A DNA stretch of 64,000 nt from Candidatus Micrarchaeota archaeon (GCA_021827925.1 JAKATZ010000024.1:4726-68725), one strand, 5' to 3'; positions 5,656-43,909 are shown, numbered from the stretch's first letter. The notes: generated from the sequence alone by a model not told the origin. Program-made: numbers and translations.

Positions 5656-5766
5656 GCCCTGGTAGCTCAGTGGTAGAGCGCTTGTCTTGTAAATAAACTT
5701 CTTAGAAAGAAGTTTAATCAAGAACTGGAAAACAAGAAGTCGGGGGTTCAATTCCCTCTCAGGGCT
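5656..5766 (+). tRNA. tRNA-Thr (anticodon UGU) with a ~39-nt intron
   Basis: Cloverleaf read by eye. The acceptor is GCCCTGG/TCAGGGC and the D arm is GCTC-AGTGGTA-GAGC. The anticodon stem is CTTGT/ACAAG with loop CTTGTAA, and the T arm is GGGGG-TTCAATT-CCCTC. An insert at about 5692..5730, 3' of the anticodon, holds a perfect 9-bp hairpin AAACTTCTT-aga-AAGAAGTTT. Confidence 0.85.
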
Positions 5767-26607: not shown

Positions 26608-26751
26608 CTATCCCTTGTATTCCATCTTATTGCTCTTGAGGAGGTACTTGTCTACAAGGGACTGTATCTTCCTTGATACGATGTTTGCCTCCCCGCCGTA
26701 GTGCTTGAGTATGCGGTATATGCGGATATTCCTGTACTTTCGGTTTATCAT
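26608..26751 (-). CDS. Candidate small basic protein (47 aa), below the usual ORF cutoff
   Basis: MINRKYRNIRIYRILKHYGGEANIVSRKIQSLVDKYLLKSNKMEYKG. The ATG lies 24 nt after the upstream stop and the stop lies 5 nt before the downstream start, so it fills an otherwise empty 172-nt gap in a tightly packed operon. Confidence 0.35.
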   Translation of the reverse strand: MINRKYRNIRIYRILKHYGGEANIVSRKIQSLVDKYLLKSNKMEYKG

Positions 26752-26774: not shown

Positions 26775-27509
26775 CTAGCTCTGAAGGCTCAGGTACCCCA
26801 TGGATACCATCTTGTCGAGTATCTCCTCGACACGCGGCGCGGCTACGCCATGGTTCTTGGCGAACTCGTTGATGTCGATGGTATTGTTGTGCACCTCTAT
26901 CCAATCTTGGACCATACCCATCAGCGAACCGTCCGAATAAGTTTGCAGCGTCTTAAGGCGCTCGCTCAGCTTCTTATTGTCATCATTCAGCTGTGCCGAC
27001 TGTATAGTAAGGTTTCGGTTCGAAGAGGCGAGCTCCAGGTTGAGTCTCTTGAGCTCGCGGTACTCGCCCAGCATGACATCGTACTTATTGAATAGGGTAC
27101 TGTACGGCTGCGAGAGGCCATTTATTATGTGGTCGAGGACCGAATCTATGTATTGCATGAACGTGCCCTCGCTTATATCGTACTGGTCGGATATCATCGA
27201 GATCAGGGAAGCCATGTTTTTCAGTATCACCGCTCTGCGCATGTTCTCGCTTGTATCGTGCGGTATGGAGTATATAACGCTGAGCTCATTGCCGGTTATC
27301 GAGATTATATGGAAAAGATACGGTTTCTTGTGTATGTTCCTGCTCTCTACGCGTACTATCACGAGCTCGCTGCCTTCGATTTTTGAGGAGTAGAATGGCA
27401 CTCTCTTGATTTTGTCCCGTATCCCGTCCAGGCTTCCGATAAGCTTCCCGCTGAAGGAGATCTTCTCCGTCTTGGGCTCGGGCGCCGTCTCTTCTGCCAC
27501 AAGTATCAC
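26775..27509 (-). CDS. Coiled-coil protein with a C-terminal winged-helix-like domain
   Basis: 244 aa. A central heptad region (ELKRLNLELASSNRNLTIQSAQLNDDNKKLSERLKTLQ) is followed by a C-terminal INEFAKNHGVAAPRVEEILDKMVSMGYL wHTH-like segment. Confidence 0.6.
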   Translation of the reverse strand: MILVAEETAPEPKTEKISFSGKLIGSLDGIRDKIKRVPFYSSKIEGSELVIVRVESRNIHKKPYLFHIISITGNELSVIYSIPHDTSENMRRAVILKNMASLISMISDQYDISEGTFMQYIDSVLDHIINGLSQPYSTLFNKYDVMLGEYRELKRLNLELASSNRNLTIQSAQLNDDNKKLSERLKTLQTYSDGSLMGMVQDWIEVHNNTIDINEFAKNHGVAAPRVEEILDKMVSMGYLSLQS

Positions 27510-27533: not shown

Positions 27534-27944
27534 TTATTGCTTGCGCTTCTCTCCGAGAGAGACTGGTTCGGCTTTCCTTCGTGATATCGAACCTCTGCTG
27601 ACCGAAAGTGCAGGGAGCCAGTTTATGAGAGAGAGAAGATAGAGGAGTATGATTATCATTACGCTGAAGAGCAGTGAGCCTATGCTAGGGGAGAGGAGCA
27701 TGCTCACCACCAGCACAGCGACGCCAAGGATAAGGTATAGCCTCTGCCGAGATATGTATCTCTTGCGGTACTTGTTGTATTTGGGATAGCACTCTTTACA
27801 GACGACAACGCGGTTGTTCAGTCTCTTTCCGCGAACGTAGCCGTTTATTGTGCGTATCGCACGGGAAACGTTATCCTCGCGTATCTCTATGCCGTCCTTC
27901 TCCTTGCCGCATATTATGCAGTAGCTCTTCCTCCCCTGTGTCAT
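27534..27944 (-). CDS. Zinc-ribbon membrane protein
   Basis: 136 aa with an N-terminal CIICGK...CKEC ribbon, 2 TM helices and a basic tail. It has a 4-nt overlap with the upstream gene. Confidence 0.6.
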   Translation of the reverse strand: MTQGRKSYCIICGKEKDGIEIREDNVSRAIRTINGYVRGKRLNNRVVVCKECYPKYNKYRKRYISRQRLYLILGVAVLVVSMLLSPSIGSLLFSVMIIILLYLLSLINWLPALSVSRGSISRRKAEPVSLGEKRKQ

Positions 27945-28246
27945 TCGACCACCAGGGTAACGACCCTGCCGAAAGTGCTCTTTATCTTCTCCTCGTCGAG
28001 GGTATTGAATATGTCAGTTATGGTTACGTCGTCTATGCCTATGCGCCGGAGCAGGTTTGAGACTTCTGGCTGCCTAAGGCCAAGCTTCTGCAGCATACCG
28101 ACAAAGGCGACTACGTTCACGTGTCTGTGCATCTTGTTCAGGGAGGATAGCATTCCTTCTATGCTGCTTTCACTGATGCCCATGGAAGTGAGCATCCTCT
28201 TCATATCTATACGGCTTATTATGAAAGTTCCGGGCAAGGCAACCAC
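27941..28246 (-). CDS. Small helical protein built from repeated 'L..(M/I/L)G(I/L/V)....(I/V)...(L/F)' hairpin modules
   Basis: 101 aa with three copies (MLTSMGISESSIEGML, MLQKLGLRQPEVSNLL, LLRRIGIDDVTITDIF). The same module ends the upstream ATPase (FLRSMGVSDSIITRIF). It starts 1 nt after the ATPase stop. Confidence 0.55.
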   Translation of the reverse strand: MVALPGTFIISRIDMKRMLTSMGISESSIEGMLSSLNKMHRHVNVVAFVGMLQKLGLRQPEVSNLLRRIGIDDVTITDIFNTLDEEKIKSTFGRVVTLVVE

Positions 28247-28247
28247 C

Positions 28248-29753
28248 TTACGAAGTGTATGTGAAGATTCGTGTTATTATGCTGTCAGAGACGCCCATGC
28301 TTCTCAGGAAGCTTATTATTATCTCCCTGCCTACGTTCCTTCCGGATATCGTCTGCACTAGCCATCTCACGTCGACCATCCTGTTCTTATCGTCCATGTC
28401 CTTGAATATGTCCTGGATCACCTGTGAACTCAGACCGCTCTCCACGAACTTCGAGGTAAGATCCATCTTCTCGAAGGAGTATTCCTTCTGTGTCTCGCGG
28501 GCAGCCAATTCGTCCGGATTCAGAACCTCGGCGATGGTTATCGTGTAGCTGTTCAGCGGCACCTCCCCTATTATGCGGTCTATTATGAACGTGTTGGGGA
28601 ACTGCACGGAGGTGTTGAACGACATGTCAACCGCGGCCTGACCGACACCGAAGCGCGTTATCTCACGGCGTATAAACCCTGAAAAGTTTAGCGAACCCTG
28701 CAGATAGTTCATGAACTTCTCGAATCGTATCCTTAACATCACAGTGGTGCCTACGTTTGAGAATATCGCCTCGTTGATGTCGGTTGGATTCTGTGAGGCA
28801 ACTATGAGTCCGAACTGATACTTTCTGCCTTCCCTTATGATCGTTATGGCATCGCTGCGTTCATCACTGGCGACCTTCCATGCCTCGTCAAGGACGACAA
28901 GCGCCTTGAGCCCGCGTGCGGCACTCCATCCTTCGGCACGCATCTTCTCCTTCAGCGTCTGCAGTATGAAAAGCGCTGCAAGGGCCCTGAATCTCTCGTC
29001 AGGTAGACTTGATAGATCGAGATCCACAAGGCCGGAGCTGGATAGCTTGCCCAGATCTATGGTGCTCTCCCTTGCAAAGTAATCTTCGCCTTCCCGGGAG
29101 AACTGCCGCAGCCGGTATATCGCATTCTCAAGTTCCGCAGGATACTCGTAGCTTCCTTCCTGCAATTTTTCATCGAGAAGACTTGCGACGTCTTTAAGCG
29201 TAGGCGCCTTACCGTCAGGTGAAGCCGGAGCGGCAAGGTTGAAGCCGGCATTGATGTACGCCTGCTCTATCGCCTCTGCAGTGAGCCTCCTCTGCTCTGG
29301 AAAACCGGATATATCGGTGAGTATGTCGAGCGAGTTCATTATCTGTTTTACCCTGTCTATGGGCTTCATGCCCGATAGATCCATTATGTTTAGGTAGTCT
29401 CCCTTCGCCAGGGATATGACAGTGCCGCCGCTCTGCTTCACCCATGCAACATATTCCCCCGCCCAGTCGATTATTATCGCATTGGTATTCCAGATATAGC
29501 TTGCGCGCGTTATGAATGTCTTGACGAAAAAGCTTTTTCCTGCCCCGGTTATCCCCACAACGGCTATGTGCGGATTTGTGAGGTTGGAGTACGTCCACGT
29601 GAAAGGCACGCTGAACAACTTTGTTATGCCCAGGAATATGGAGTTTGTGGGGTCGTTCAGAAGGAACTCCTGCGGCGGCTCCGGAGGGCGACTTAGGAAG
29701 ATCCTCTTTGAAAGCTCGTTGCTCATAACATTCTGTATCCTTACAAGCGTCAT
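28248..29753 (-). CDS. FtsK-HerA superfamily ATPase (DUF87 / HerA-VirB4-like)
   Basis: 501 aa. Walker A is GITGAGKS, encoded at 29532..29555 and checked against the nucleotides. Walker B is ALVVLDEAWK. REGRKYQFGLIVASQNPTDI is typical of HerA/VirB4-type P-loop ATPases. Confidence 0.85.
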   Translation of the reverse strand: MTLVRIQNVMSNELSKRIFLSRPPEPPQEFLLNDPTNSIFLGITKLFSVPFTWTYSNLTNPHIAVVGITGAGKSFFVKTFITRASYIWNTNAIIIDWAGEYVAWVKQSGGTVISLAKGDYLNIMDLSGMKPIDRVKQIMNSLDILTDISGFPEQRRLTAEAIEQAYINAGFNLAAPASPDGKAPTLKDVASLLDEKLQEGSYEYPAELENAIYRLRQFSREGEDYFARESTIDLGKLSSSGLVDLDLSSLPDERFRALAALFILQTLKEKMRAEGWSAARGLKALVVLDEAWKVASDERSDAITIIREGRKYQFGLIVASQNPTDINEAIFSNVGTTVMLRIRFEKFMNYLQGSLNFSGFIRREITRFGVGQAAVDMSFNTSVQFPNTFIIDRIIGEVPLNSYTITIAEVLNPDELAARETQKEYSFEKMDLTSKFVESGLSSQVIQDIFKDMDDKNRMVDVRWLVQTISGRNVGREIIISFLRSMGVSDSIITRIFTYTS

Positions 29754-29785: not shown

Positions 29786-30613
29786 TCACTTTTGCACCTG
29801 GAAGAACTTGTTTATCTCTGCGAAATCGTACGTGCGGTAGTTGAACTTGTGCAGGTAGTACAGCTCCCTGCCGACTACGCGGCTTATGCTGAGATCGAAC
29901 GCGTTGAAGAGCGTCTGCAGCTGGCTTAGCTGGTTCGCCAGTGCATCCGTGGCCTCCTTTTCGCTTATCCCGACGGCCGTGCTCTCTATGTACATTAGAG
30001 AAGTTATTGGCCTTTCGCCTCCGGATATGCGGTCTATGCGTGTCTGCATCACATTTATCTTCCTCTGAAGCTCCTGGACGGTCATCTGGCTTGGATTCGT
30101 GCCGCTCAGCTCCTTTGATAGCTGGAATGATAGAAGGCCTCTCTGGGCCTCGAGCTCTTCGCGGTAGCCCTGTAGATCCTTTGCGGCGGATATGGCATTG
30201 AACTTGAAAGGGAAGTTTATGTTCATGACCATGCGTTCCCACTTGTCAGGTGCTGATGCCATCGCCTCTTCCTCCCCAGCAACCACATTCTCAGCTGTGA
30301 ATATGTATCCATAGATATTTGCAGTCAGATAACCTGTTGCGTAATGCAACCCTTTGGTGTATTTTAGTATGCAGTTTTGCGAGCTTGGTATCAGGTAATC
30401 CTTCGCTGGTATCGTGTTTATCTTGAGGATTTTCGTGAAAGCGGGGAATATTATGAAATCCGCATAGTTTATTATGAGGATAGCAAGTATGGCGAGGATG
30501 GCAAGTGCGAGCATCAGAATTCCGAAGGCGCCGTAGCTAGCGTAGTTAAGCGCCACGACAAGCACGGCAGCTAATGACGCCCCGAGATAGAGTATGGTTG
30601 ATTCGTCCATCAT
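29786..30613 (-). CDS. Bitopic (2-TM hairpin) protein with a ~200-aa soluble coiled-coil-containing domain
   Basis: 275 aa with two N-terminal TM helices followed by a soluble domain. It has a 4-nt overlap with the upstream gene. Confidence 0.65.
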   Translation of the reverse strand: MMDESTILYLGASLAAVLVVALNYASYGAFGILMLALAILAILAILIINYADFIIFPAFTKILKINTIPAKDYLIPSSQNCILKYTKGLHYATGYLTANIYGYIFTAENVVAGEEEAMASAPDKWERMVMNINFPFKFNAISAAKDLQGYREELEAQRGLLSFQLSKELSGTNPSQMTVQELQRKINVMQTRIDRISGGERPITSLMYIESTAVGISEKEATDALANQLSQLQTLFNAFDLSISRVVGRELYYLHKFNYRTYDFAEINKFFQVQK

Positions 30614-31503
30614 ATCCCCTCTTCGATTGTCTTCTGCCGCAGGCGTTCGCTCACCGTTTCCACAGGTATCATGTAATCTGGCTCTGTGAAGTTTAGCATC
30701 TCGGATCCAGTGGCTATTGATGCGTTTACCCCAAGAGTGGCACTGATGCCTGCGGCGAGCTCTTCTGCCTGCTGAACCGCTATGTTTACCGCCTCCTCGT
30801 CGCTCCCGCCCATCGCAGTTAGCATTGCGTACGTAAACAGTGATTGCGAGTGCACTTCACTGACATTGTTCAGTAGGTTGCGCCACATCGTAACCTCTCC
30901 CCTTATGCGCTCTGAAACGCTCTTCGGCACCCCTTTTTTCGCCTCGCTCTCAGCGTATCTCTCTCCGGCCTCATTGAGCTTGTTCCTTATGCTGTTGATA
31001 TAATCGTCCTTGTTTATCACATAGAGCTGGGAGGAGATCTTGACGGGGGATTTTGTTAGGGCGAGTATCCTGCTGAAGAGTCTGGCAAAATCCGCTTTCT
31101 CCGCTGCGCTCATCTCGGTGGAGGATCTGTACACGGGAATCTTTATGAAAACTGAAGCGTAGGAGTTAGAACCTTCCTTCACTATCAGGGCATTGCCAGA
31201 AGGCGCCATGTAGAAAGGATCATCGGCGCTGAGAACCATGGCTCTGCCTTTCATGCGCAGCGCAGGCAGTACAAGATATGAATAGTACTTGGTTGAGAAT
31301 GCCACAACTGCTAGAAGAAGCGAGAGTATCCCGAATGCCACGTTTGCAAGTGGATAAGGTGTAGTGGATGCGACAAACGCGAACAGCAGGGCCGCGCCTA
31401 TAAATATCACGAATATCAATAGCTGCGAATTGGTTGGCAGTGTAGCACCTTCCTGTATGATCTCTGAATGGTAGGAGCATCCTTTTATACTTTTATACAG
31501 CAA
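30610..31503 (-). CDS. Bitopic (2-TM hairpin) protein with a ~200-aa soluble domain, same architecture as 29786..30613
   Basis: 297 aa with two N-terminal TM helices followed by a soluble domain. It overlaps the upstream gene by 11 nt. Confidence 0.65.
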   Translation of the reverse strand: MLYKSIKGCSYHSEIIQEGATLPTNSQLLIFVIFIGAALLFAFVASTTPYPLANVAFGILSLLLAVVAFSTKYYSYLVLPALRMKGRAMVLSADDPFYMAPSGNALIVKEGSNSYASVFIKIPVYRSSTEMSAAEKADFARLFSRILALTKSPVKISSQLYVINKDDYINSIRNKLNEAGERYAESEAKKGVPKSVSERIRGEVTMWRNLLNNVSEVHSQSLFTYAMLTAMGGSDEEAVNIAVQQAEELAAGISATLGVNASIATGSEMLNFTEPDYMIPVETVSERLRQKTIEEGI

Positions 31504-32593
31504 AAGCGCGCATCCTGCCGGAGAGCTGCGTCATCCCGCCTATGAATTCTGCAATCTGGCCTATGATAAGGTAGGTCACGCCGAGTATGAGCGCAGGATA
31601 GAAGAGCACAGAGAGCCAGTAGTCGCCCATGCTCGCCTGTATTCCGTCCAGGCCTTTCGTCACCAGGTTGGATGATGGCGAAGCAGCACCGAATATCGCG
31701 CCGCTCGTACCGCCGTACTGCTGCAGCTCGCTGCTTGCAATGACAGCCTGCTGCATCAGCTTAGGAGCTGTGGAGATTTCAGCGAAAGAAAATAGGACGG
31801 GCATCACGAAATAGAAGCCTATTGCTACGGCTATCATTATTCCCCCCAGGCCGCGGGTGGGAAGCACTGTGCGGAAGATCACCCCAGGTATGAGGAAAAC
31901 TGGTATTGCCATGTAAGAGAACAATAAGATCAGATAGAATTCACCGTAAAGCAGCATTATGCCGTCGAGCTGCAAGTCGACAATGGCCCATGCCGGCGTA
32001 TAGAAATACCATGTGGCCAGATACGCGAGCGGCTCTGTTATCGGTCTTATGCATAGGGGCAGGCATATCTCTGTCCTTATGCTTGTGTAGAACCTTACGG
32101 CTATTATTACCCTGAAGAGCTGATATACGCTGTTCTGCTCTGCGTTTATTGTATTGCTTATGTAGGTGAGGGACGAGGTATAAGGATTCCCGCTAAGCAC
32201 GAAGCTTGGGAGCAGGCCGAATATTATGCCGGCAATAGTGAGGAACATTATGACTATTATCGCGCTTGCCAGGGCTTCGTACATCTCCCCTATGCCGAAC
32301 GTTCTCAGGCGCTCATTGCGCAGGACTGTGCCCATAACGAAGATAAGTATGGCGATGAAGAAAGAGAGGAGCACCGCAAGGAAGGCGAGAGGCTCCCACT
32401 TTGTCCAGTTGGAGATCAGGGCCTGGTTTATCGACTGGGCGCCTTTCTGGCAGTACCATGGGGAGACTGCGTTTACTATCCCCGTCTTTGCGCAGTATTC
32501 ATATAGAGGCACGGCTGCGCCTGCTGCTGCCATGGTGCCGAAGACCAGAAGCGCGCACAGTATAAGAAATTTTTTCCTCTCCGTTTGTATCAC
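31493..32593 (-). CDS. Polytopic membrane protein, paralog F of a 6-member tandem family
   Basis: 366 aa with a signal-like N-terminus and multiple TM segments. The family motif is GVIFRTVLPTRGLGGIMIAVAIGFYFVMP. The upstream motif is ERLRTFGIGEMYEALASAIIV. Confidence 0.7.
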   Translation of the reverse strand: MIQTERKKFLILCALLVFGTMAAAGAAVPLYEYCAKTGIVNAVSPWYCQKGAQSINQALISNWTKWEPLAFLAVLLSFFIAILIFVMGTVLRNERLRTFGIGEMYEALASAIIVIMFLTIAGIIFGLLPSFVLSGNPYTSSLTYISNTINAEQNSVYQLFRVIIAVRFYTSIRTEICLPLCIRPITEPLAYLATWYFYTPAWAIVDLQLDGIMLLYGEFYLILLFSYMAIPVFLIPGVIFRTVLPTRGLGGIMIAVAIGFYFVMPVLFSFAEISTAPKLMQQAVIASSELQQYGGTSGAIFGAASPSSNLVTKGLDGIQASMGDYWLSVLFYPALILGVTYLIIGQIAEFIGGMTQLSGRMRAFAV

Positions 32594-33762
32594 CTGAGTA
32601 TTCCGGTCAGCATGGACAGGAAGTCCATGCGCTCGCCTATTGCCTGCGAGAAATCAATTATGAAAGTATCTACTATTATAAAGTTCAGTAGAGGCACAAA
32701 GACCAGCCCTATTATGATCAGCCCAAGATAAGTCATTACCGAGCCCATGTATACGGATAATGCATTCACGCCTATTGCTGCAGGGCACAGCGTGATGTCT
32801 ATGATGCATGCTGCAACTTCCAGCGGAGACTGCGGAATTAGTGAGTTAGGAAGCAGGAGGATTCCTGCTTTCGCAGCTGCAGGGAATACTTGGTTAAGTC
32901 CATAATCTATGAATCCGTAGGTCATGCTTACCATGAGCGGATATATGAGGCCTATGCCTAGCGCAAATGCTATCATTGAGCCGCCGAATGTGCGCGTTAT
33001 ACCAAATGTTCTGGCTATCAGTCCCAGGGCCATGAATATTGAGAATATAAGCACGGATGCCGAAAGCAGGACCAGCTGCACCTGATTCAGTATCATCATG
33101 CCATAAATGAATGCTATCGCAGGGCCGCTGTATTTGTAAACAGTGTTGGCAGGCAGCAGGGATATTGCCTTCGATCCTAGTGTGAATGAAAACAGTGCAG
33201 AGAATCCGGTGGGAACCCCGCTGGCAAGCTTTGAACTTAGGGAGAAGTCTAAAGAAGGAATCAACGAGGATACAAGAAGTGCGTAATAGAGATAGGAGTT
33301 AGCCTCACTGGTGAATACGTTGAAGGTGTACATGTCACATATGCCGAGTGAGTAGAAATTATTAGGAGTAACTCCGGAGGGATTCGATGCCTGTGGTACT
33401 GTAGGGTTTCCAGGAGTCGGAGAGCATTGAGGAGGCACTAGTCCGCCTATTACCAAGGCAGGAACAGGATTGGCAGTGCAGAGGACTGTCGAAAAGGAGG
33501 CAAATATCAGTATCAGCACTATGGAGAGAAGGACTTCGTATATCTTTATCCTCGTCCATGTGCGGATATCGCTCCTGCCAACAAAAGGGCTCAGCCCATA
33601 AACAACGGAAAGAACGGCTATGACAGCAAACACAGCAAGGACAACTACAGGAAACCAGGAGGTGTAAGGAGAAGTTAGGAAAGCGCTGACGCTGCTGGTG
33701 CAAGCGTTGACAATGCTAAGCATGAAAGGCAGCATCACACGGTAGTAAAGGAACTCTTCCAT
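32590..33762 (-). CDS. Polytopic membrane protein, paralog E
   Basis: 390 aa. The family motif is GLIARTFGITRTFGGSMIAFALGIGLIYP. The upstream motif is RTWTRIKIYEVLLSIVLI. Confidence 0.7.
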   Translation of the reverse strand: MEEFLYYRVMLPFMLSIVNACTSSVSAFLTSPYTSWFPVVVLAVFAVIAVLSVVYGLSPFVGRSDIRTWTRIKIYEVLLSIVLILIFASFSTVLCTANPVPALVIGGLVPPQCSPTPGNPTVPQASNPSGVTPNNFYSLGICDMYTFNVFTSEANSYLYYALLVSSLIPSLDFSLSSKLASGVPTGFSALFSFTLGSKAISLLPANTVYKYSGPAIAFIYGMMILNQVQLVLLSASVLIFSIFMALGLIARTFGITRTFGGSMIAFALGIGLIYPLMVSMTYGFIDYGLNQVFPAAAKAGILLLPNSLIPQSPLEVAACIIDITLCPAAIGVNALSVYMGSVMTYLGLIIIGLVFVPLLNFIIVDTFIIDFSQAIGERMDFLSMLTGILR

Positions 33763-35028
33763 TCAGATCAACTTGTTCATGAGCTTGCCGCTTTGCAGTG
33801 AAGGCGCGCCGAGTAGATCGCCGACCATCTCAAGCATGTCGTATGCCACTACAAACGCTATTCCGAAGCCGAGTACCTCTAGCGCGGAATCCGCAGCTCC
33901 TTGTGCAAATATCTGCAGTGTTATTATAAACGCATTACCCATAGCGACATTTGCCCCGCCTGGAGCTAGAAGCGAGAGCATCGCGGCGCCTAACTGATAT
34001 ATCCTACCGAGGGTTATTGAACCTGCGTCACCAGTGCAGAAAGCGATCTTTTGGGTTGAACTATTGCATACCGTGTTTTGTGATATCGTACTAGGAGTAG
34101 GCGCCAATGCAAGGAATGGGAACAATATTGAGGGGAATATTATGAAGAAAGATATGAAAAGAGCTATGAGTGATCCTCCCGCAGGCCTTGTCCATGGCAA
34201 TGACCTGAGCACAAGGCCGACGTAAAGAAAGAGGGGGAAGAGGAAGTAGAAGATGTAAAGCAGAAAGATCACGCCAATCCCCAGAAATAGGAAGAGGAAG
34301 ATTATTGCGGTCTGCAGGAACGTCACAGAGACCATAGGGCCTATGCCTTCAAAAGGCTGCACTGTGCCCTGTGGGATATAGTTTGATAGCGGACCCCCAA
34401 CGGAGAACGAGAAGTATGAGTTTTGAACTATCTCGAATGGTATCAGGAGTGCGAAGGTGCCGATTATGCTGAATAAGGATGGCGTGACCTGACTGTTCAT
34501 TATATTAGTACAGAGCGAAGAGTAGAGAGCAGTGACTCCGGAGCCTTCCGTTATGTGCGTTGTTGTAACCCCCAAGGCATCCGTGATATTTGAGAAAAAA
34601 TTGAGTGTGCTGTAGGCAAACGAGAGGCTTGCTGTGATCACAACCACTATTATTATGTTCAGTATCTGCTCCATGTATTCTGCCCTAACGAATGCCACGA
34701 GCTTGTGTATCCCGAAAGCCGCGCCTATCGCATACACCACAGATAGCACGATGAGAACCATTGTTACTATCAGCATTGAGAGGTCTATCAGATGCGAGTA
34801 TATCAAGGTGGAGCCAGCGGGGTTGAAGCTGTTTGTGACGATGTTGGGATTCGTATTTGCGAAGAGGGTATCGCAATATCCAGCAGATGCAGCGTTTACA
34901 AGGAAGAAAGATAGCATTGAGAATAGGGATATTGCAAGGAAGGCGCGCCTGCGTACCGTACTGTGAACTGCTTCGCGCTCACGGGCCGGCTTTCCGAAGT
35001 CCATATTAACAGTTCTTCTTTCTTTCAT
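33763..35028 (-). CDS. Polytopic membrane protein, paralog D
   Basis: 421 aa. The family motif is GLVLRSLPWTRPAGGSLIALFISFFIIFP. The upstream motif is VAFVRAEYMEQILNIIIV. Confidence 0.7.
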   Translation of the reverse strand: MKERRTVNMDFGKPAREREAVHSTVRRRAFLAISLFSMLSFFLVNAASAGYCDTLFANTNPNIVTNSFNPAGSTLIYSHLIDLSMLIVTMVLIVLSVVYAIGAAFGIHKLVAFVRAEYMEQILNIIIVVVITASLSFAYSTLNFFSNITDALGVTTTHITEGSGVTALYSSLCTNIMNSQVTPSLFSIIGTFALLIPFEIVQNSYFSFSVGGPLSNYIPQGTVQPFEGIGPMVSVTFLQTAIIFLFLFLGIGVIFLLYIFYFLFPLFLYVGLVLRSLPWTRPAGGSLIALFISFFIIFPSILFPFLALAPTPSTISQNTVCNSSTQKIAFCTGDAGSITLGRIYQLGAAMLSLLAPGGANVAMGNAFIITLQIFAQGAADSALEVLGFGIAFVVAYDMLEMVGDLLGAPSLQSGKLMNKLI

Positions 35029-36599
35029 ATAAGCCTACCTAGTCCTAGAAGGAAGGTGTCTCCTCCGAAAAGCGAGGATAGACCTTTCAGGCTTGCAAGC
35101 GTCAGCAGGATGTTGAGGATCGGGAGCACAATTCCGATCACAGATATTATCCCGTACATCTGCTCAAGACCGAATAACGTGTTTATGACCTCTTTCGGAT
35201 CGCAACCGAGATTATACGTGAGAAACTTGGGTGCACTCTGATATACATTTCCAATCAGTGCCGTAAGTGCAAGGTACTGACTGTATCCAGGTACAAGGTA
35301 TGAACCAGCATCCAGAAGTTCCTGCTGCAGAAGGTTGCTCCCTCCGCTAGAGCCGAATGGTATCGGCCAGCAGCCGTAGTAGTTTATTATGGATTCAGCG
35401 TTTGGAAATACGTAGAAGTTTATGTTCTTGGCGTAGTCCACACACGGTGTTCCTTTGTCAGTAAACCGAGGGCAGCTGCTGTCCCCAGGAGGCGTGCCGT
35501 TCAGATATAGGACAGGTATGACAGAAGGAGATGATGGCGATGGAGGAGAGCCGAGTATGGATGTGGTTGGCGCACCGGTTATTGGCATCCTGCTGCATGA
35601 GCCCGTAGTAGGACAGGTCAGCGAAACGTACTCGAACAGGTAGATGGTAGGGTAGATTATCACTGAGGCAAGGGCTATCGCTATCAGAAGGCCTCCGAGC
35701 CGGCGCGTTAGAAATGAGGCGCGCAGTATCACGCCTGCTGCTAACAGATACGGCCATGCGAAGAGCGCGAAGAGTATGGCCAGAAGCTGTATTTGGAACA
35801 TGTAGAACATCATTGTTGCCTGGGTGAGCACCGAAAACATTACCCCTCTGAACACAGTGTAAGCAGAATACGGCAGATAGGCTATCATCACCTGCCAGGT
35901 GTCAGGTATCTGGCTAGTCCCAGACGCCTGCAGATTCTGCACACCATTCTGTAGACAGAAGAGCTCAGGGAGGCAAGCGCCGCTTATTGGCTGCAGGGCG
36001 GAAAGATAGTTTGTATATCCCTCGAAGATGTAGACTGCGTTTATGTTCTCGGATATCTGCTCGGTAAGATTCGCGGTTATTAGATAGGTTGATGCAAGTC
36101 CGTAATCGAGATTGGCGGTCGCATCTGTCTTGCCGGCCTTGCTTATCAGACTCGAACATATGGTGTTTGTAGGAGTAACGGTAGACGGTGAGACGAGGGT
36201 TGGCGGCTCTATGTTGCCTACCAGCAGTATGTTGGCATTGTCGAGCTGACCACATATTTTGTTCACATTGCCTTGTGGTAAAGAAGAAAGTACGGCATAG
36301 AAAGTACTGCCATAGAAGTTCAGAACCATGAGTATTATTATGACCATTGCAACAGTACCTAGTGCCTGGCTGTATTCACTTATCGCATTTGCCTTTATGC
36401 GGCGGTTGTTCAGCAGATATCCTATTATGTAGTATATCAGCGTTATGCCTACTCCCAGAAGCGAAGCAAGAAGCACAAGTGGGAGCCAGCTGTTTAGCAC
36501 AGATACACTCGTTTCTACGGTTGGAGCTGCCGCGTGAAGTGAAGCGAAAAATACTGCAGATGTTACTGCCGCAAGATAGAGGCATAGTGAGCGTCGCAT
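35025..36599 (-). CDS. Polytopic membrane protein, paralog C (largest, with long extracytoplasmic inserts)
   Basis: 524 aa with signal peptide ...FFASLHAAAP. The family motif is GVILRASFLTRRLGGLLIAIALASVIIYP. The upstream motif is RIKANAISEYSQALGTVAMV. Confidence 0.7.
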   Translation of the reverse strand: MRRSLCLYLAAVTSAVFFASLHAAAPTVETSVSVLNSWLPLVLLASLLGVGITLIYYIIGYLLNNRRIKANAISEYSQALGTVAMVIIILMVLNFYGSTFYAVLSSLPQGNVNKICGQLDNANILLVGNIEPPTLVSPSTVTPTNTICSSLISKAGKTDATANLDYGLASTYLITANLTEQISENINAVYIFEGYTNYLSALQPISGACLPELFCLQNGVQNLQASGTSQIPDTWQVMIAYLPYSAYTVFRGVMFSVLTQATMMFYMFQIQLLAILFALFAWPYLLAAGVILRASFLTRRLGGLLIAIALASVIIYPTIYLFEYVSLTCPTTGSCSRMPITGAPTTSILGSPPSPSSPSVIPVLYLNGTPPGDSSCPRFTDKGTPCVDYAKNINFYVFPNAESIINYYGCWPIPFGSSGGSNLLQQELLDAGSYLVPGYSQYLALTALIGNVYQSAPKFLTYNLGCDPKEVINTLFGLEQMYGIISVIGIVLPILNILLTLASLKGLSSLFGGDTFLLGLGRLI

Positions 36600-37766
36600 T
36601 CATGCACCCCAGAAAGGACCTACGCCAATTATCGAAGACAATGAGTTGAGTCCCTTCGTGAACCCTATCGCAAATCCCACAGTCATCGCAAGATCTAACG
36701 CTATTAATACAATTCCCTCGAAGAAGTACGCGCCGACATCAGGCACGAATGAATTTATGATGTCAGGAAGATCAAAGAAACCTTTTATCAGGTTGATGTA
36801 GAATCCTGTTGTGCCGCTTTGCGCATATGAAAAGTAGTAGTTGAAGGGTACGCTGAGAGTTCCGTACCCGAATATGTTGGGAGCCTGGTTTGACGAGAAG
36901 AGGCTACTGACAGGTATGTTTGAAATCGGATATTTGCCAAGGTAAGCCGAGTAAGGATTGCATACTGTCCCTTTGTTTGTGCAGTAGAGCCAGCCAGTTA
37001 TGTAATAATTCATGGATATGGTCATGGGAAAAATGAAATATAAGGCTATGGCAAGGGCTATCACAGAATTTGCAGCCTCGCGGAGCCTGGGTCCCGAAAA
37101 GCTTATCGATCTTAGTATGACCGCAGTGGGTATCAGGGTTATTAGGGCAAATTGTTCTATTAGGGGCATGATGAAATACAGCGAGAAGAGTATACCGAAG
37201 GTAAGCATGATTATGCCAGTGAAAACTCCTGAAAACGTTGTAGCATAATCGTAGGCTATATAGACCAGCTCGCTGCCAGGCGACACGCCGAGGGAAAAGA
37301 AGGGCGTTGGTATCGAGAAGGAGGTGACTATGTTTGCAATTGCGCTGTCTAGATTTCCATCTATTATGAATGATATTCCCTCGGACCACACATTGGTTGC
37401 AAGTCCTATGCCCTTCGAGTATAGAAGATTATGCAGGTAGAGATGGGCAAACTGGTAAGGATCGAACTGCGCAGAGTTGCCAGTAAGCAGCGCTGCGGTA
37501 CTGCACATGGGAAGTGCGAAGGTTATCAATGAGACCACGAGAAGCATGCTTATCACACCCTGCACGAGCTCGTACCTGACAACTCCCCTCAGCCTTTCCC
37601 TTGTGGCTATTGGAAGGACACTCCCTACTGCATATATGAATGAAGAGATGGCCATCGTTGCTAACACTATAAGGGCTGTTGCTTCGATCCACTGTGGCCG
37701 GTATATTGCGCCGAACGTGCAGGTGGACTGGAAGAGTGAGGTTACGGCGAAGAAAAAATCCATCAT
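36600..37766 (-). CDS. Polytopic membrane protein, paralog B (most divergent motif)
   Basis: 388 aa. The motif is AVILRSISFSGPRLREAANSVIALAIALYFIFP, where GG is replaced and 2 residues are inserted. The upstream motif is RLRGVVRYELVQGVISMLLV. Confidence 0.65.
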   Translation of the reverse strand: MMDFFFAVTSLFQSTCTFGAIYRPQWIEATALIVLATMAISSFIYAVGSVLPIATRERLRGVVRYELVQGVISMLLVVSLITFALPMCSTAALLTGNSAQFDPYQFAHLYLHNLLYSKGIGLATNVWSEGISFIIDGNLDSAIANIVTSFSIPTPFFSLGVSPGSELVYIAYDYATTFSGVFTGIIMLTFGILFSLYFIMPLIEQFALITLIPTAVILRSISFSGPRLREAANSVIALAIALYFIFPMTISMNYYITGWLYCTNKGTVCNPYSAYLGKYPISNIPVSSLFSSNQAPNIFGYGTLSVPFNYYFSYAQSGTTGFYINLIKGFFDLPDIINSFVPDVGAYFFEGIVLIALDLAMTVGFAIGFTKGLNSLSSIIGVGPFWGA

Positions 37767-39173
37767 TCACACCAGCTTCAGCTTGCCGCCTATCTGCAGG
37801 CGTATCGTGCCGCCGAGCATCCTCGCGATGTTGTCTGTCATAGGGAATGCGATTATCGCGTCCAGAATGAACAGGAAGTAAGTCTGCAGCATTATGTAGA
37901 TGTTGTTTTGTATGACGAAGTTCATTGCAGGATAGGGATTGTAGATTGACTCGAATGCAATATTGTTTGTAACACCAACTATCAGAAGAGGATTTGAGGG
38001 AATCCCGGAAGGAGAGCATCCGTGCGAGGTTAGGAAGTTGAATACCTTGTTAAGGATTGTGGGAGAGTAGGTACTGCACGAATAAGCCGGAAGGTCTGTC
38101 GGCATCATGTTCGCCGCGCCAAGTACGTTTGAAAAATAATTGGATACAGGGGTGTTGAGAATGATTAGCAAGGAAGGCCAGATGATACTAATGCCTATCC
38201 CAAAAGCTATAAGTGTGCCGCCTATGCCCCTTATGAATGGGAATGCGCGCATAATCAAGCCCATAGGTATGAGAACAAGCAGGCCGATGCGTATCAGAAG
38301 AGGCAGGAGTACTATCTGGCCTATGAATACGGCCATCGCTGGCGTTTCGAGAAAAACCAATGCATCATTAAACACGGATACAAGCTGTACGTGATATATG
38401 AAATCGGATTGAAGGAAGAAATTCCCGAATATGATGAAGGATACCATTGACCTGAAGACTGGTATGAAATCAAGGGCCGCTGGAAGCGGAACAGGAGGTA
38501 CAGGAATCCCAGGAAAGACAAATGAAAGACCGGAATACACCCCGTTTCCAGCAAGTCCGTTGTTTTTCGTGCCGCTGAAAAGGGAACCTATGCTTGTAAG
38601 CTGGCTTGTGAAACCGCCGCCTCCGCCCAGCCCTCCTTTGAATAACCCGAATGAGAGGAAAAGGGAGATCATGTGCTTTATTCCGTACTCTATCTCACCC
38701 TCGGTGTTGCAAAGATATACCTCTGAGCCGTAAGTAAGCAGATCTGCATTGGCTATATAGGTAGGGGTTCCTGCGCGCAGGGAAGCGCGACCTGAAGCGG
38801 GTATGTTATTGCCAGCAGTTATCACGGCTATGTTGCCTATCAACGTGACTACTGAGAATATAGCTGCTACGAGCATCACAGACTTTGCGAACTCCCAGTA
38901 CTCATTGCCCAACCAACCGGAGATGCCCGCCGAGGGAAATAGCTTGCTCAGTATGTACCCTATGACTATCACATCGAAGGATATGAAAAGTGCGATTATG
39001 GATATGCCTATTGAAATCGCAGGGATCTTGAAGCCCAAGCCTATGTTGTTTGCTATGTTCCCGGGCTGACACTGACTGAGGCTTGATAGCGTAACAGAAG
39101 GAGCTGCGTTTAGTGTGCAGAGCATCATGAGAGAAGCTAGCAGCAGGAGGATGCCATGCCTTAAAGAGGGCAT
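37767..39173 (-). CDS. Polytopic membrane protein, paralog A
   Basis: 468 aa with signal peptide ...MLCTLNAAPS. The family motif is GLIMRAFPFIRGIGGTLIAFGIGISIIWP. The upstream motif is GNEYWEFAKSVMLVAAI. Confidence 0.7.
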   Translation of the reverse strand: MPSLRHGILLLLASLMMLCTLNAAPSVTLSSLSQCQPGNIANNIGLGFKIPAISIGISIIALFISFDVIVIGYILSKLFPSAGISGWLGNEYWEFAKSVMLVAAIFSVVTLIGNIAVITAGNNIPASGRASLRAGTPTYIANADLLTYGSEVYLCNTEGEIEYGIKHMISLFLSFGLFKGGLGGGGGFTSQLTSIGSLFSGTKNNGLAGNGVYSGLSFVFPGIPVPPVPLPAALDFIPVFRSMVSFIIFGNFFLQSDFIYHVQLVSVFNDALVFLETPAMAVFIGQIVLLPLLIRIGLLVLIPMGLIMRAFPFIRGIGGTLIAFGIGISIIWPSLLIILNTPVSNYFSNVLGAANMMPTDLPAYSCSTYSPTILNKVFNFLTSHGCSPSGIPSNPLLIVGVTNNIAFESIYNPYPAMNFVIQNNIYIMLQTYFLFILDAIIAFPMTDNIARMLGGTIRLQIGGKLKLV

Positions 39174-39232
39174 GTATTCTTCTTGACATCAACAGCTATA
39201 AATAAGGCGCGCATTACACACTGCATGCTCTG

Positions 39233-40687
39233 CTAGGTAAGGGGTGTGCTGTGGGTGCGCATACGGTAGTGGAAGAGACGCATTCTGGTGATCCCGCCTC
39301 CTGCATTCATTTCGGCTACGGGCTCGCCTCCTTCTAGCCATATCCTTCCGGTAGGTTTCAGTATAACCTGTCCTTTGCGTGGCCCTTCTGTTTCGCGCAG
39401 TATCTTGCCTTCGGCATTCATCATTGGCGCTATGACGAATGCTCTGCGTGGATTGAAGGAAACGCCGATCCGCATCTGAGTCCCTGGAAAAAGGCCGTGC
39501 CGGAGTTCAGCATGCTCGAATTCACCAGTAGTGACTACCCTACCCAGGGAACGGCCGTAAAACTGCGTTGTACGCGAGAGCCTGATGTGCCTTAGCTCGG
39601 TAAGCCGGCGTTGCAGCTGGTCGATGTGATCACTGTGCATCGCAGCGATGCTGTCTTCGCCTGAGGAGATGGCATTATTCCATGCCATTCTTGCGGCGCT
39701 CATCTGCCTCTGAAGAAGCGCTTGCTGCCTGTTGAAATCCCTAACCTCAAGAGTGCGCTCCCATTTATCCGCTATATCGCCCCACATCCTTGCATGGTAA
39801 TTAAGCGCACGTTTTTCCGCACCTTCGAATGAGGATCTCGCCGTCTCAATGCCTCCTATTATTCTCCGCATTCTCGCAGCGTATCTTCTTCTCTGGCGCT
39901 CGGTTCGTGCATTCATGAAGCCTTGATAAGCCCTATCCCGCCTATCATATAACCTTCCAAGGTATTGCATTCTGCGTTGCTTATATACAGCAAAATGGTA
40001 TCTGAGGTCCGCCTCGGCTCGCTTGCTTTGCGAGCCCTCGAATAACGTGCTTGTCGTACTCCTGAACGCTTGACTTGTTTCCCTTCTTCTCCCCCACTCT
40101 GCCTTCGCCGCGGAGATCCTCTGGCCTTTGCGCGCACGAATGCTGCTCCTTATCGGATTGTATATCACAGCCCAGCCGGAGGCGTTTTGCCTTCTCATAC
40201 CAGGCCAATTTAGCGGATTGAATCTCGAGAACCTAGTACTTGCGCCTCCTGCAGGGCCCTGTGGAATTCCATGCGGAGAGCTTGGCGCGCCGCTTGGAAG
40301 GGCAGAGGCCGGCGCCGCGCCTGCGGCTGCAGCCGCAAGTGCAACTTCAGAGGTAGGTATTGTGCTAGGACCTGAGGGTGGGCTACCTGCACCTGTGCCT
40401 CCGCTGCCGGACTTTCTGCCGAACGTCCAGCCGCTTTTGGCTCCCACAGTCCTCCTCAGGTTGGGATCGAGTATCGTCCTGAAAGGAAATGCAGACTTGC
40501 CGGAAAGGTTGCCCTTTGAGCTGGGAGTTATGCCTGCCAGCGTCGCTATTCCGAATATCGCGAATATGTTGAAGCCGCGCGTTGCGCCTGCAGCGGCGAG
40601 TATGAGTATCGCTATTATGAACAGAGGTATGAATGCGTTAATCGAGCCTATCGAGAGCAATATGTACAGCAACGTTGCCAGCAGCAT
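39233..40687 (-). CDS. First operon gene: N-terminal TM hairpin, Gly/Pro/Ala/Ser-rich linker, Arg-rich helical domain, C-terminal beta-like domain
   Basis: 484 aa. The N-terminus is LLATLLYILLSIGSINAFIPLFIIAILILAAAGA. The low-complexity stretch is SGSGGTGAGSPPSGPSTIP...AAAAAGAAPASALPSGAPSSP. A long R/Q/A-rich helical region follows. Confidence 0.65.
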   Translation of the reverse strand: MLLATLLYILLSIGSINAFIPLFIIAILILAAAGATRGFNIFAIFGIATLAGITPSSKGNLSGKSAFPFRTILDPNLRRTVGAKSGWTFGRKSGSGGTGAGSPPSGPSTIPTSEVALAAAAAGAAPASALPSGAPSSPHGIPQGPAGGASTRFSRFNPLNWPGMRRQNASGWAVIYNPIRSSIRARKGQRISAAKAEWGRRRETSQAFRSTTSTLFEGSQSKRAEADLRYHFAVYKQRRMQYLGRLYDRRDRAYQGFMNARTERQRRRYAARMRRIIGGIETARSSFEGAEKRALNYHARMWGDIADKWERTLEVRDFNRQQALLQRQMSAARMAWNNAISSGEDSIAAMHSDHIDQLQRRLTELRHIRLSRTTQFYGRSLGRVVTTGEFEHAELRHGLFPGTQMRIGVSFNPRRAFVIAPMMNAEGKILRETEGPRKGQVILKPTGRIWLEGGEPVAEMNAGGGITRMRLFHYRMRTHSTPLT

Positions 40688-40719
40688 CGCGTTTCCCTAT
40701 TGGGAATAGCCGTTTATGA

Positions 40720-40729
40720 TTTATATAGT
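40720..40729 (-). promoter_or_regulatory. Candidate TATA box for the large minus-strand operon
   Basis: The minus strand reads ctatataaat, centred about 37 nt upstream of the ATG at 40687. That is consistent with an archaeal TATA at about -26 and a short leader. Confidence 0.3.
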
Positions 40730-40882
40730 TTGGCACGCGGAGCAGAAACCTGAGGGGGAGGTGCGCAGCGCGTGAGCCCTATACAGAAACGGATAGATTT
40801 ATAAATGAGAAGCAGCATATACTAATTACGTAGTAAGGCTTAAGCTGAAAGGCAGACGGCTGATCCTACAGAGGAAAACAAA

Positions 40883-43833: not shown

Positions 43834-43909
43834 TGGTGCGAGCGCCGGGATTTGAACCCGGGTTCTTGACTTGGCAAGCCAAAGTCCTACCAGGCTAGAC
43901 TACACTCGC
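43834..43909 (-). tRNA. tRNA-Gly (anticodon GCC), CCA encoded
   Basis: The reverse complement reads GCGAGTG-TA-GTCT-AGCCTGGTA-GGAC-T-TTGGC-TTGCCAA-GTCAA-GAAC-CCGGG-TTCAAAT-CCCGG-CGCTCGC-A-CCA, a full 76-nt cloverleaf. Confidence 0.9.

Follow-up and report, generated by a model that had tools for sequence, protein, structure and literature searches.

A conserved Micrarchaeota gene set with six ancient membrane-protein paralogs and a VirB4/HerA-clade ATPase: a candidate envelope transfer machine

Type IV secretion and the archaeal Ced and Ted systems are, by their motor, the closest described counterparts of a set of about 14 genes, which we analyse here in a 64,000-nucleotide (nt) stretch of a genome of the Micrarchaeota (DPANN archaea); this whole stretch is called the window in the following. 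The set includes six tandem genes, M1 to M6, for polytopic membrane proteins as well as a VirB4/HerA-clade P-loop ATPase; ATPases of the FtsK/HerA/VirB4 type typically form hexamers. According to PMC9905601, Ced (Sulfolobales) and Ted (Thermoproteales) are DNA-import, domesticated type IV systems without recognisable sequence similarity to each other, and like the present locus they are chromosomal archaeal systems that combine a VirB4-like ATPase with polytopic partners. Unlike in Ced and Ted, the polytopic partner here is not one protein but six paralogs of an unrelated-looking family, and the ATPase is devoid of an N-terminal domain, which two hairpin proteins (D297 and D275) may supply.

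The Rickettsiales are obligately host-dependent and possess several tandem, diverged polytopic paralogs beside a VirB4-type motor, with other components duplicated as well. The paralogs of Rickettsia are recognisable VirB6 homologs within an otherwise canonical system with VirB8-11 and VirD4. In R388, VirB6 forms a homopentamer, as opposed to the six different proteins at this locus. By gene arrangement, the Micrarchaeota set recalls the vir-homolog type IV system of the Rickettsiales with its tandem VirB6 paralogs (PMC2653234); here, D297/D275 represent the duplicated other component. When compared to the R388 inner-membrane complex (8rtb, 8rtd), the combination of hairpin, soluble domain and ATPase resembles VirB3 and VirB4 split across genes. 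No counterpart of VirB2, B5, B8, B9, B10, B11 or D4 was found here.

In mycobacterial Mce systems, which import lipids, the six paralogs MceA-F form a heterohexamer and share one operon with two paralogous permeases (YrbEA/B) and one ATPase; each Mce protein has one membrane helix. The likeness to the present locus is arithmetic (six, two and one motor) and an analogy only, although it provides a precedent for six non-identical paralogs in one six-fold assembly that spans the envelope; unlike in Mce, Pfam scans revealed neither an MCE domain nor an ABC ATPase, and each M protein has several helices. In the flagellar/type III gate FliP5-FliQ4-FliR1, related long hairpins build a pseudo-six-fold protruding assembly. 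This gate illustrates the use of non-identical subunits at unique positions, whereas neither sequence nor Foldseek similarity to it was found here and the motor is of another type. The SPEARE-type giant proteins of the host-dependent Nanohaloarchaeota (DPANN) carry a VirB4/TraG-like ATPase domain and have been proposed to act in host exchange (PMC10266531). Like the present set, they join a VirB4-like motor to a large protein exposed at the surface, but there the ATPase is fused to the giant surface protein, and no six-paralog array is described for them.

The six M genes across Micrarchaeota

A sequence-only reading of the window had proposed six consecutive genes for paralogous membrane proteins of 468, 388, 524, 421, 390 and 366 amino acids (aa). 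The corresponding open reading frames (ORFs) exist exactly as claimed. They are arranged head to tail on the minus strand from 39173 to 31493, with junctions of 0, 0, -4, 0 and -4 nt, the start of M4 overlapping the stop of M3 by 4 nt. Such junctions would fit an equimolar co-production of the six proteins. E-values (E) below refer to a family hidden Markov model (HMM).

M1, paralog 1: 37767..39173, minus strand, 468 aa; ORF, family HMM E 2e-74
M2, paralog 2: 36600..37766, minus strand, 388 aa; family HMM E 1e-41, most divergent copy
M3, paralog 3: 35025..36599, minus strand, 524 aa; longest predicted outside loops, 11 Cys
M4, paralog 4: 33763..35028, minus strand, 421 aa; basic N-terminal cytoplasmic extension
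M5, paralog 5: 32590..33762, minus strand, 390 aa; without the N-terminal extra helix
M6, paralog 6: 31493..32593, minus strand, 366 aa; shortest and best conserved copy

The six proteins are mutually only 17-24% identical. Their pairwise alignments are colinear across 230-310 residues, with BLAST E-values down to 1e-7, and phmmer relates M3 to M6 at E 1e-9 with the nominal database size set to one million. From the 64-kb window, an HMM of M6 and 111 further family members retrieved exactly these six ORFs (E 1e-41 to 3e-83) and no others. The conserved late block put forward for all six is found verbatim in the window and aligns properly as one block, in which R309, R315, I322, A323 and P333 (M1 numbering) are invariant across the paralogs. 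Judged from these sequence comparisons, the similarity of the six goes beyond common hydrophobicity and they are true paralogs. Two further features, an early E-x2-E motif and a C-terminal tail rich in Gly, proved to be real as well. Each orthogroup possesses its own conserved signature residues; in the M5 orthogroup K-I-Y-E/D replaces the early E-x2-E, and in M2 the turn motif is the variant R-x6-G-P-x-L-R-E-x-A-N without GG, which is kept among M2 orthologs. A signal-like or membrane-spanning N-terminus, which had been ascribed to each protein, holds in the form of an extra hydrophobic segment for M1, M3, M4 and M6 only, whereas M2 and M5 begin almost at the first core helix. Comparison of the two hairpins and the tail of the family with each other by hhalign revealed no internal duplication.

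The locus was followed across genomes by a scan with the ATPase as query and one genome per species, by which 151 relatives were confirmed and 80 loci were kept; the loci were classified ORF by ORF via the best match to the window proteins. The locus with 1:1 orthologs is present in all 80 species-level genomes fetched. Exactly M1-M2-M3-M4-M5-M6, in that order and with 1:1 orthology, was found at 37 species-level loci. At 18 loci the fetched DNA ends within the array, yet what is left represents a correct suffix of the series, and the split ORFs seen at 3 loci all belong to the same six orthogroups. No other M copy number occurs among the classified loci. M orthologs share 25-53% identity with the window proteins (26-50% for M1 across the 37 loci), compared to 67-80% for the ATPase across the fetched Micrarchaeota genomes. 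Since paralogs within the window are less similar to each other than orthologs are between genomes, the duplications must be older than the divergence of these lineages. Hence, the six proteins are ancient, non-interchangeable paralogs which are kept 1:1 and in fixed order in every complete locus examined, in line with the sequence-only reading, which had expected ancient duplications with all copies retained and had suggested exactly six copies as a test.

The array can be separated from the ATPase. On the complete 853-kb chromosome OY969902.1 (L057, L091), M1-M6-D297-D275 lie at about 382-393 kb and the ATPase block lies at about 244-266 kb; the modules are thus about 130 kb apart, and there are still six M genes. 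A split into the array with D297/D275 and the ATPase with D101/D136/D244/D788 is also seen at L028, L029 and L040. The arrangement in OY969902.1 implies that the set consists of two modules and that the hairpin proteins D297/D275 go with the array.

Several side observations concern the assemblies themselves. In L008/L023 (JAMCYP010000009.1), L030 and L044, the gene M3, M4 or M5 is broken into two or three ORF fragments, probably due to frameshifts from assembly, and the D244-D788 pair is inverted and placed 5' of D297 in L028 and L029. Almost all of the 80 loci are labelled Micrarchaeota, the remainder being unlabelled or apparently mislabelled bins. The locus-bearing contigs L035, L070, L089 and L008 were deposited as Saccharimonadales bacterium, 'bacterium', Methanothrix sp. 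and Marsarchaeota, names which look like binning or labelling errors. One of the 80 loci comes from the complete genome of Ca. Micrarchaeum sp. A_DKE, a cultivated strain whose stored supplementary annotation table holds nothing for the locus.

Topology and family of the M proteins

Hydropathy and structure prediction indicate about five core membrane helices per M protein; in M1 these are preceded by the N-terminal hydrophobic segment and accompanied by a large predicted outside loop with a Gly-rich stretch. The AlphaFold2 model of M6, based on an alignment of 108 sequences, is all-helical with a predicted local distance difference test score (pLDDT) of 88.5 and a predicted template-modelling score (pTM) of 0.80. 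Its helices comprise 34-55 residues and thereby exceed a membrane span, and they include a helical hairpin of 55 and 51 residues, at the cytoplasmic turn of which the model places R241 and R247. In all six proteins the density of Lys and Arg amounts to 14-23% in loops predicted to be inside and to 1-5% in those outside, in agreement with the earlier assignment of the Arg/Gly turn to the cytoplasmic side.

It follows from this bias and the model that every element conserved across the family faces the cytoplasm: the R-x5-R-x2-GG turn of the hairpin, a basic loop that contains E-x2-E, and the amphipathic tail rich in Gly. The large loops on the outside vary between paralogs and between species. 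By the same two lines of evidence these variable loops, as well as immunoglobulin-like (Ig-like) additions of some relatives, face outward, and the helices extend beyond the membrane by about 22-29 residues, which would correspond to about 3-4 nm in a fully helical state.

In a search of 1.84 billion representative proteins, the profile of the six paralogs matched 2,705 clusters (at 50% identity) with E<=1e-3 and 1,641 with E<=1e-10; all matches with a taxon label are Micrarchaeota or mislabelled-looking bins. Among 108-112 diverged members, R241, R247 and P265 (M6 numbering) show no or almost no variation and G237, G250, G251, E103, E106, G352 and G353 are at least 90% conserved, while A255 reaches 90% only in the broader alignment. 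In a few relatives the core is preceded on its N-terminal side by Ig-like domains of the TIG or PKD/SprB/Y_Y_Y type, which hints at adhesion. Carriers include P0091 (582 aa) and P0165 (912 aa), and this placement fits an outward-facing N-terminal region.

Profile searches retrieved no known family, be it a transporter, VirB6/TrbL, CedA or another; the sequence-only reading had not recognised the motif from VirB6/TrbL or CedA either. Pfam yielded nothing for the six proteins at E<=1 and no family that matched over the core of 112 members at E<=0.01, NCBIfam gave no relevant match at E<=1, PADLOC and PHROGs returned nothing meaningful, and the family profile found no match among PDB sequences at E<=10. 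Foldseek compared the M6 model to 350,542 PDB chains and found none at E<0.08, with no R388 chain among the 50 matches listed. Known transporter families (ABC, MFS and others) were accordingly rejected, as neither Pfam, NCBIfam nor PDB sequences gave a match. The M proteins share one trait with VirB6/TrbL (PF04610) in being polytopic and encoded together with a VirB4-type ATPase, in a common operon in most genomes; as an identity for the family, VirB6/TrbL failed in hmmscan, hhalign and Foldseek. Here, hhalign gave probabilities of <=0.2% when the M profiles were compared to TrwI or to a VirB6 profile of five sequences (TrwI of R388 and four other VirB6 genes). No CedA/VirB6-like or CedA1/VirB2-like protein was detected.

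The ATPase, the partner genes and their genomic setting

Across genomes the gene order is (U484)-M1..M6-(U484)-D297-D275-ATPase-D101-D136-D244-D788, about 14 genes in total. The sequence-only reading had placed the ATPase next to the array, which does not hold, as D297 and D275 lie between M6 and the ATPase. Besides the M genes, the window contains the following features of the set:

U484, membrane-hairpin protein: 39233..40687, minus strand, upstream of M1 here
D297: 30610..31503, minus strand, two N-terminal membrane helices and a soluble domain of about 200 aa
D275: 29786..30613, minus strand, membrane hairpin and alpha/beta soluble domain
P-loop ATPase, VirB4/HerA clade: 28248..29753, minus strand, 501 aa
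D101: 27941..28246, minus strand, small helical protein
D136: 27534..27944, minus strand, zinc-ribbon-like N-terminus (CxxC...CxxC), then a long hydrophobic membrane segment
D244: 26775..27509, minus strand, soluble, coiled coil and possible winged-helix C-terminal end
Small basic ORF of 47 aa: 26608..26751, minus strand, from gene finders, between D244 and D788; membership in the system uncertain
D788: 24236..26602, minus strand, signal/anchor helix, predicted outside domain of about 500 aa, one membrane helix and strongly conserved cytoplasmic domain of about 210 aa

The ATPase displays a Walker A motif (GITGAGKS, residues 67-74) and a Walker B motif (VVLDEAW, residues 286-292), while the N-terminal domain of VirB4-type proteins is missing from the polypeptide. 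Alignments to the C-terminal halves of CD1110 (E 5e-18), TraC (3.5e-16) and VirB4_CagE (2e-8) span its whole P-loop domain, and it aligns to the VirB4 C-terminal domain structure 4ag5 and to the Walker B region of TrwK/VirB4 as well. The nearest annotated plasmid relatives are traC/VirB4 genes. HerA, CedB and CedD models align to a part of the ATPase only. Two more specific HerA identities were rejected: as for the HerA of a HerA-NurA pair, HerA models match the C-terminal half of the ATPase only, at 48-50 bits compared to cutoffs of 800-970, and there is no nuclease in the locus; with regard to HerA-based anti-phage defence, only the ATPase matches PADLOC (generic HerA, DndH and mad8 P-loop models) and 0 of 9 other locus proteins do. 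The identical ATPase protein is found on contigs of the Micrarchaeota metagenome-assembled genome GCA_027363575.1 and on related metagenome contigs.

By hhalign, which aligns D297 to the D275 family over 250 columns with a probability of 96.5% and E 1e-9, the two hairpin proteins are paralogs. The length of D275 is near constant (273-275 aa in most orthologs), while the start of D297 is uncertain: a TTG at 31503 yields 297 aa and the start at 31410 chosen by gene callers yields 266 aa. The structural model of D275 (pLDDT 82) comprises the membrane hairpin and the alpha/beta domain, and its top three Foldseek matches are 8rtb_A, 8rtd_O and 8rtd_T (probability 0.99, E 0.048, 168 columns). These are R388 type IV secretion chains of 747-808 residues and the only coherent matches; as the other subunits named in 8rtb/8rtd have at most about 400 aa, chains of this length were read as TrwK/VirB4 (823 aa). 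Such a predicted fold match would be coherent with a neighbouring ATPase that resembles VirB4 without its N-terminal half. A profile search of the PDB with D275 gave nothing.

D101 resembles the last approximately 60 residues of the ATPase (BLASTP E 0.001), which suggests a duplicated small helical module. The winged helix of D244 is based on weak Pfam matches only. In D788, 22 N-x-S/T sequons all fall at residues 39-532, the part predicted to be outside; the C-terminal approximately 210 residues contain none, are the most conserved part among orthologs and match no known domain. D788 was rejected as the S-layer protein, since the S-layer protein of Micrarchaeum is another gene with a Pfam S-layer domain and D788 shows no such match. 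Profile searches of the PDB with D788, D244 and D297 gave nothing below E 0.1, and the partner proteins did not match models of viruses (PHROGs) or defence systems.

In U484 only the first approximately 75 residues, a two-helix hairpin, are conserved, and whole orthologs range from 327 to 811 aa; the remainder is Arg-rich in the window, with an isoelectric point (pI) of 11.6. The gene lies 5' of M1 or between M6 and D297, depending on the genome; besides the window, these traits of U484 were noted in L015, L060, L064, L066-L068, L071, L073, L075, L078, L080 and L083. A/T-rich TATA-box-like sequences, identified by eye only, are found at 40719-40730 and 39196-39207 on the minus strand (ctatataaat and ccttatttatag), about 25-40 nt 5' of the start codons of U484 and M1. 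This suggests two archaeal promoters, one before U484 and one before M1.

In the window, genes for topoisomerase VI B and superoxide dismutase flank the set, and a peptidase A4 gene is nearby. Housekeeping genes flank it elsewhere, too (topoisomerase VI B, ribosomal protein operons, PCNA), and in L007 and L009 the locus lies directly 3' of the large ribosomal-protein operon (S17...S5). As the flanks differ, with a ribosomal operon in one case and topoisomerase VI B/superoxide dismutase in the other, the block is conserved and its chromosomal position is not. The base composition across the locus shows nothing anomalous. The window also contains two transfer RNA (tRNA) genes, at 5656-5766 (plus strand) and 43837-43909 (minus strand); the former spans 111 bases, so that it probably harbours an intron, a frequent feature in archaea. 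This tRNA gene, topoisomerase VI B, superoxide dismutase and the peptidase A4 gene are consistent indications of an archaeal chromosome.

Possible functions of the gene set

The explanation that we consider best, and to which we give about an even chance, is that the six genes encode the membrane core of a chromosomal apparatus of about 14 genes, driven by a VirB4/HerA-clade motor, so far found only in Micrarchaeota and serving as an envelope transfer machine. The gene set is apparently inherited vertically, and its M genes are individually indispensable and co-transcribed. The apparatus would be related to type IV secretion through its motor only and is not counted here as a member of any named system; no published description of it was found in the literature searched, as far as the accessible texts go, and the secretion systems inventoried for strain Mia14 of the Micrarchaeota comprise Sec, Tat and type IV pili only. 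The match of six paralogs with a hexameric motor, from which the sequence-only reading had derived a heteromeric ring, is attractive and partly supported, albeit an interpretation; none of the refuting outcomes named in that reading came true (the late block aligns, the copy number is six throughout and no known transporter family matches), and a platform with one of each of the six subunits is plausible. The conserved face common to all six points to a shared internal partner. D297 and D275, which lie between the array and the ATPase, are more likely than the array itself to be the direct partners of the motor.

In such a machine, equal amounts of the six proteins would be made and one copy of each would join in a single heteromeric platform, whose long helices may project about 3-4 nm past the membrane like a stalk. 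Its conserved cytoplasmic face would dock on D297 and D275, which could take the role of VirB3 and the VirB4 N-terminal domain and couple the platform to a presumably hexameric ATPase ring. D788 would provide the part that crosses the space beneath the S-layer. ATP hydrolysis would then drive the transfer of macromolecules across the envelope, with DNA, protein or possibly lipid as cargo, most likely during contact with the Thermoplasmatales-type host that these reduced archaea require; cargo and direction of transfer are guesses.

Several observations weigh against this explanation. HerA and VirB4 models give about equal scores for the ATPase, all of them far below the curated cutoffs, by a factor of 5-20 for the VirB4 families. 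The fold match between D275 and VirB4 is weak (E 0.048, template-modelling score 0.34), with the aligned part of VirB4 not reported, and hhalign of the D275 family profile with the TrwK sequence found nothing. No pilin, coupling protein or relaxase was matched by Pfam or NCBIfam among the locus proteins, the U484 hairpin not having been scanned against VirB2/VirB3-type pilin profiles. Neither hmmscan nor hhalign nor Foldseek reveals a similarity of the M family to VirB6, and VirB6 is reportedly pentameric, not hexameric, in known type IV systems (R388 structure papers). Finally, physical interaction, stoichiometry, the hexamer, a pore and motor contact are all inferred.

With regard to the cargo, exchange with a host is the most economical guess in view of three published observations. 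According to PMC8975820, Micrarchaeota in culture possess few transporters, their biosynthesis of DNA, RNA and lipids is incomplete, and they presumably rely on direct contact between cells. Cryo-tomography of a Micrarchaeota co-culture revealed a 21-nm barrel-like docking structure in the symbiont envelope, to which no protein is assigned (PMC11329633). Domesticated type IV systems already serve DNA import in archaea (PMC9905601). These observations also bear on a bolder version, which we hold only tentatively and judge to be rather doubtful, namely that the approximately 14 genes encode a kind of envelope machine not yet described, in which the six paralogs occupy unique positions of one six-fold ring or of a one-turn helical seed above a hexameric ATPase, and which may be the docking barrel seen by cryo-tomography.

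A DNA-handling machine built on an FtsK/HerA-type pump would be an alternative that overlaps with the envelope transfer machine and differs mainly in cargo; we regard it as unlikely. Here, the six membrane proteins would form a DNA conduit or anchor, either for the import of host DNA for nucleotide salvage, as in Ced, or for chromosome segregation or division. The ATPase indeed matches the CedD and CedB DNA-import models as well as HerA, and its high identity between genomes would fit a core housekeeping role. In Ca. Micrarchaeum harzensis, the pathways to DNA and RNA precursors are incomplete (PMC8975820). Potential nucleic-acid binders are at hand in the Arg-rich U484, the zinc ribbon of D136 and the possible winged helix of D244, but all these hints are below Pfam thresholds, and it is the Arg-rich part of U484 that varies between species while the hairpin alone is conserved. 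Moreover, the locus harbours no nuclease, ParA or recombinase genes, and a division role would have no obvious need for six surface-exposed paralogs and a glycoprotein-like surface protein.

Still less probable, in our view, are six separate surface proteins, i.e. independent receptors, adhesins or permeases that share a membrane anchor and serve one ligand or solute each, with the ATPase being merely an operon neighbour. In favour of this, the outside loops are large, paralog-specific and fast-diverging, some relatives bear adhesin-type Ig-like domains, and the ATPase module of some genomes lies apart from the array. However, such proteins usually vary in copy number, so that a fixed number and order with junctions of 0 or -4 nt in 37 genomes is unexpected. 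It is, furthermore, the cytoplasmic face which all six have in common, the array of split genomes is always accompanied by D297 and D275, and no transporter family matched. A conjugation apparatus of a mobile element, i.e. the transfer machinery of an integrated plasmid or virus, was rejected as extremely improbable: the ATPase clade is used by conjugative elements, with TraC/VirB4 as nearest plasmid relatives, and a tRNA gene lies about 3 kb beyond U484, but the uniform vertical pattern (1:1 orthologs in the 80 fetched species-level genomes, 151 confirmed relatives), the housekeeping flanks and inconspicuous base composition, the lack of an integrase, relaxase or coupling protein among the locus proteins, the 0 ATPase relatives in 2.9 million viral contigs and the lack of any phage family match of the partners all argue against it.

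The envelope transfer machine would bear on how these organisms live. DPANN archaea have genomes under 1 Mb and are missing lipid, nucleotide and amino-acid pathways. Contact-site envelope structures have been seen by cryo-tomography in the context of their uptake from hosts, with no genes assigned, and the locus offers about 14 concrete candidates; it is unusually conserved, present in the cultivated strain A_DKE and driven by a type of motor that moves macromolecules. If the ring or barrel version were true, the machine, at the barrel where host nanotubes attach, would be the gate for DNA, lipids or proteins from hosts. The locus also adds a membrane-protein family of about 2,700 clusters without a Pfam model or a Foldseek match in the PDB, and it provides a natural case in which to ask why cells keep six different subunits where six identical ones might do.

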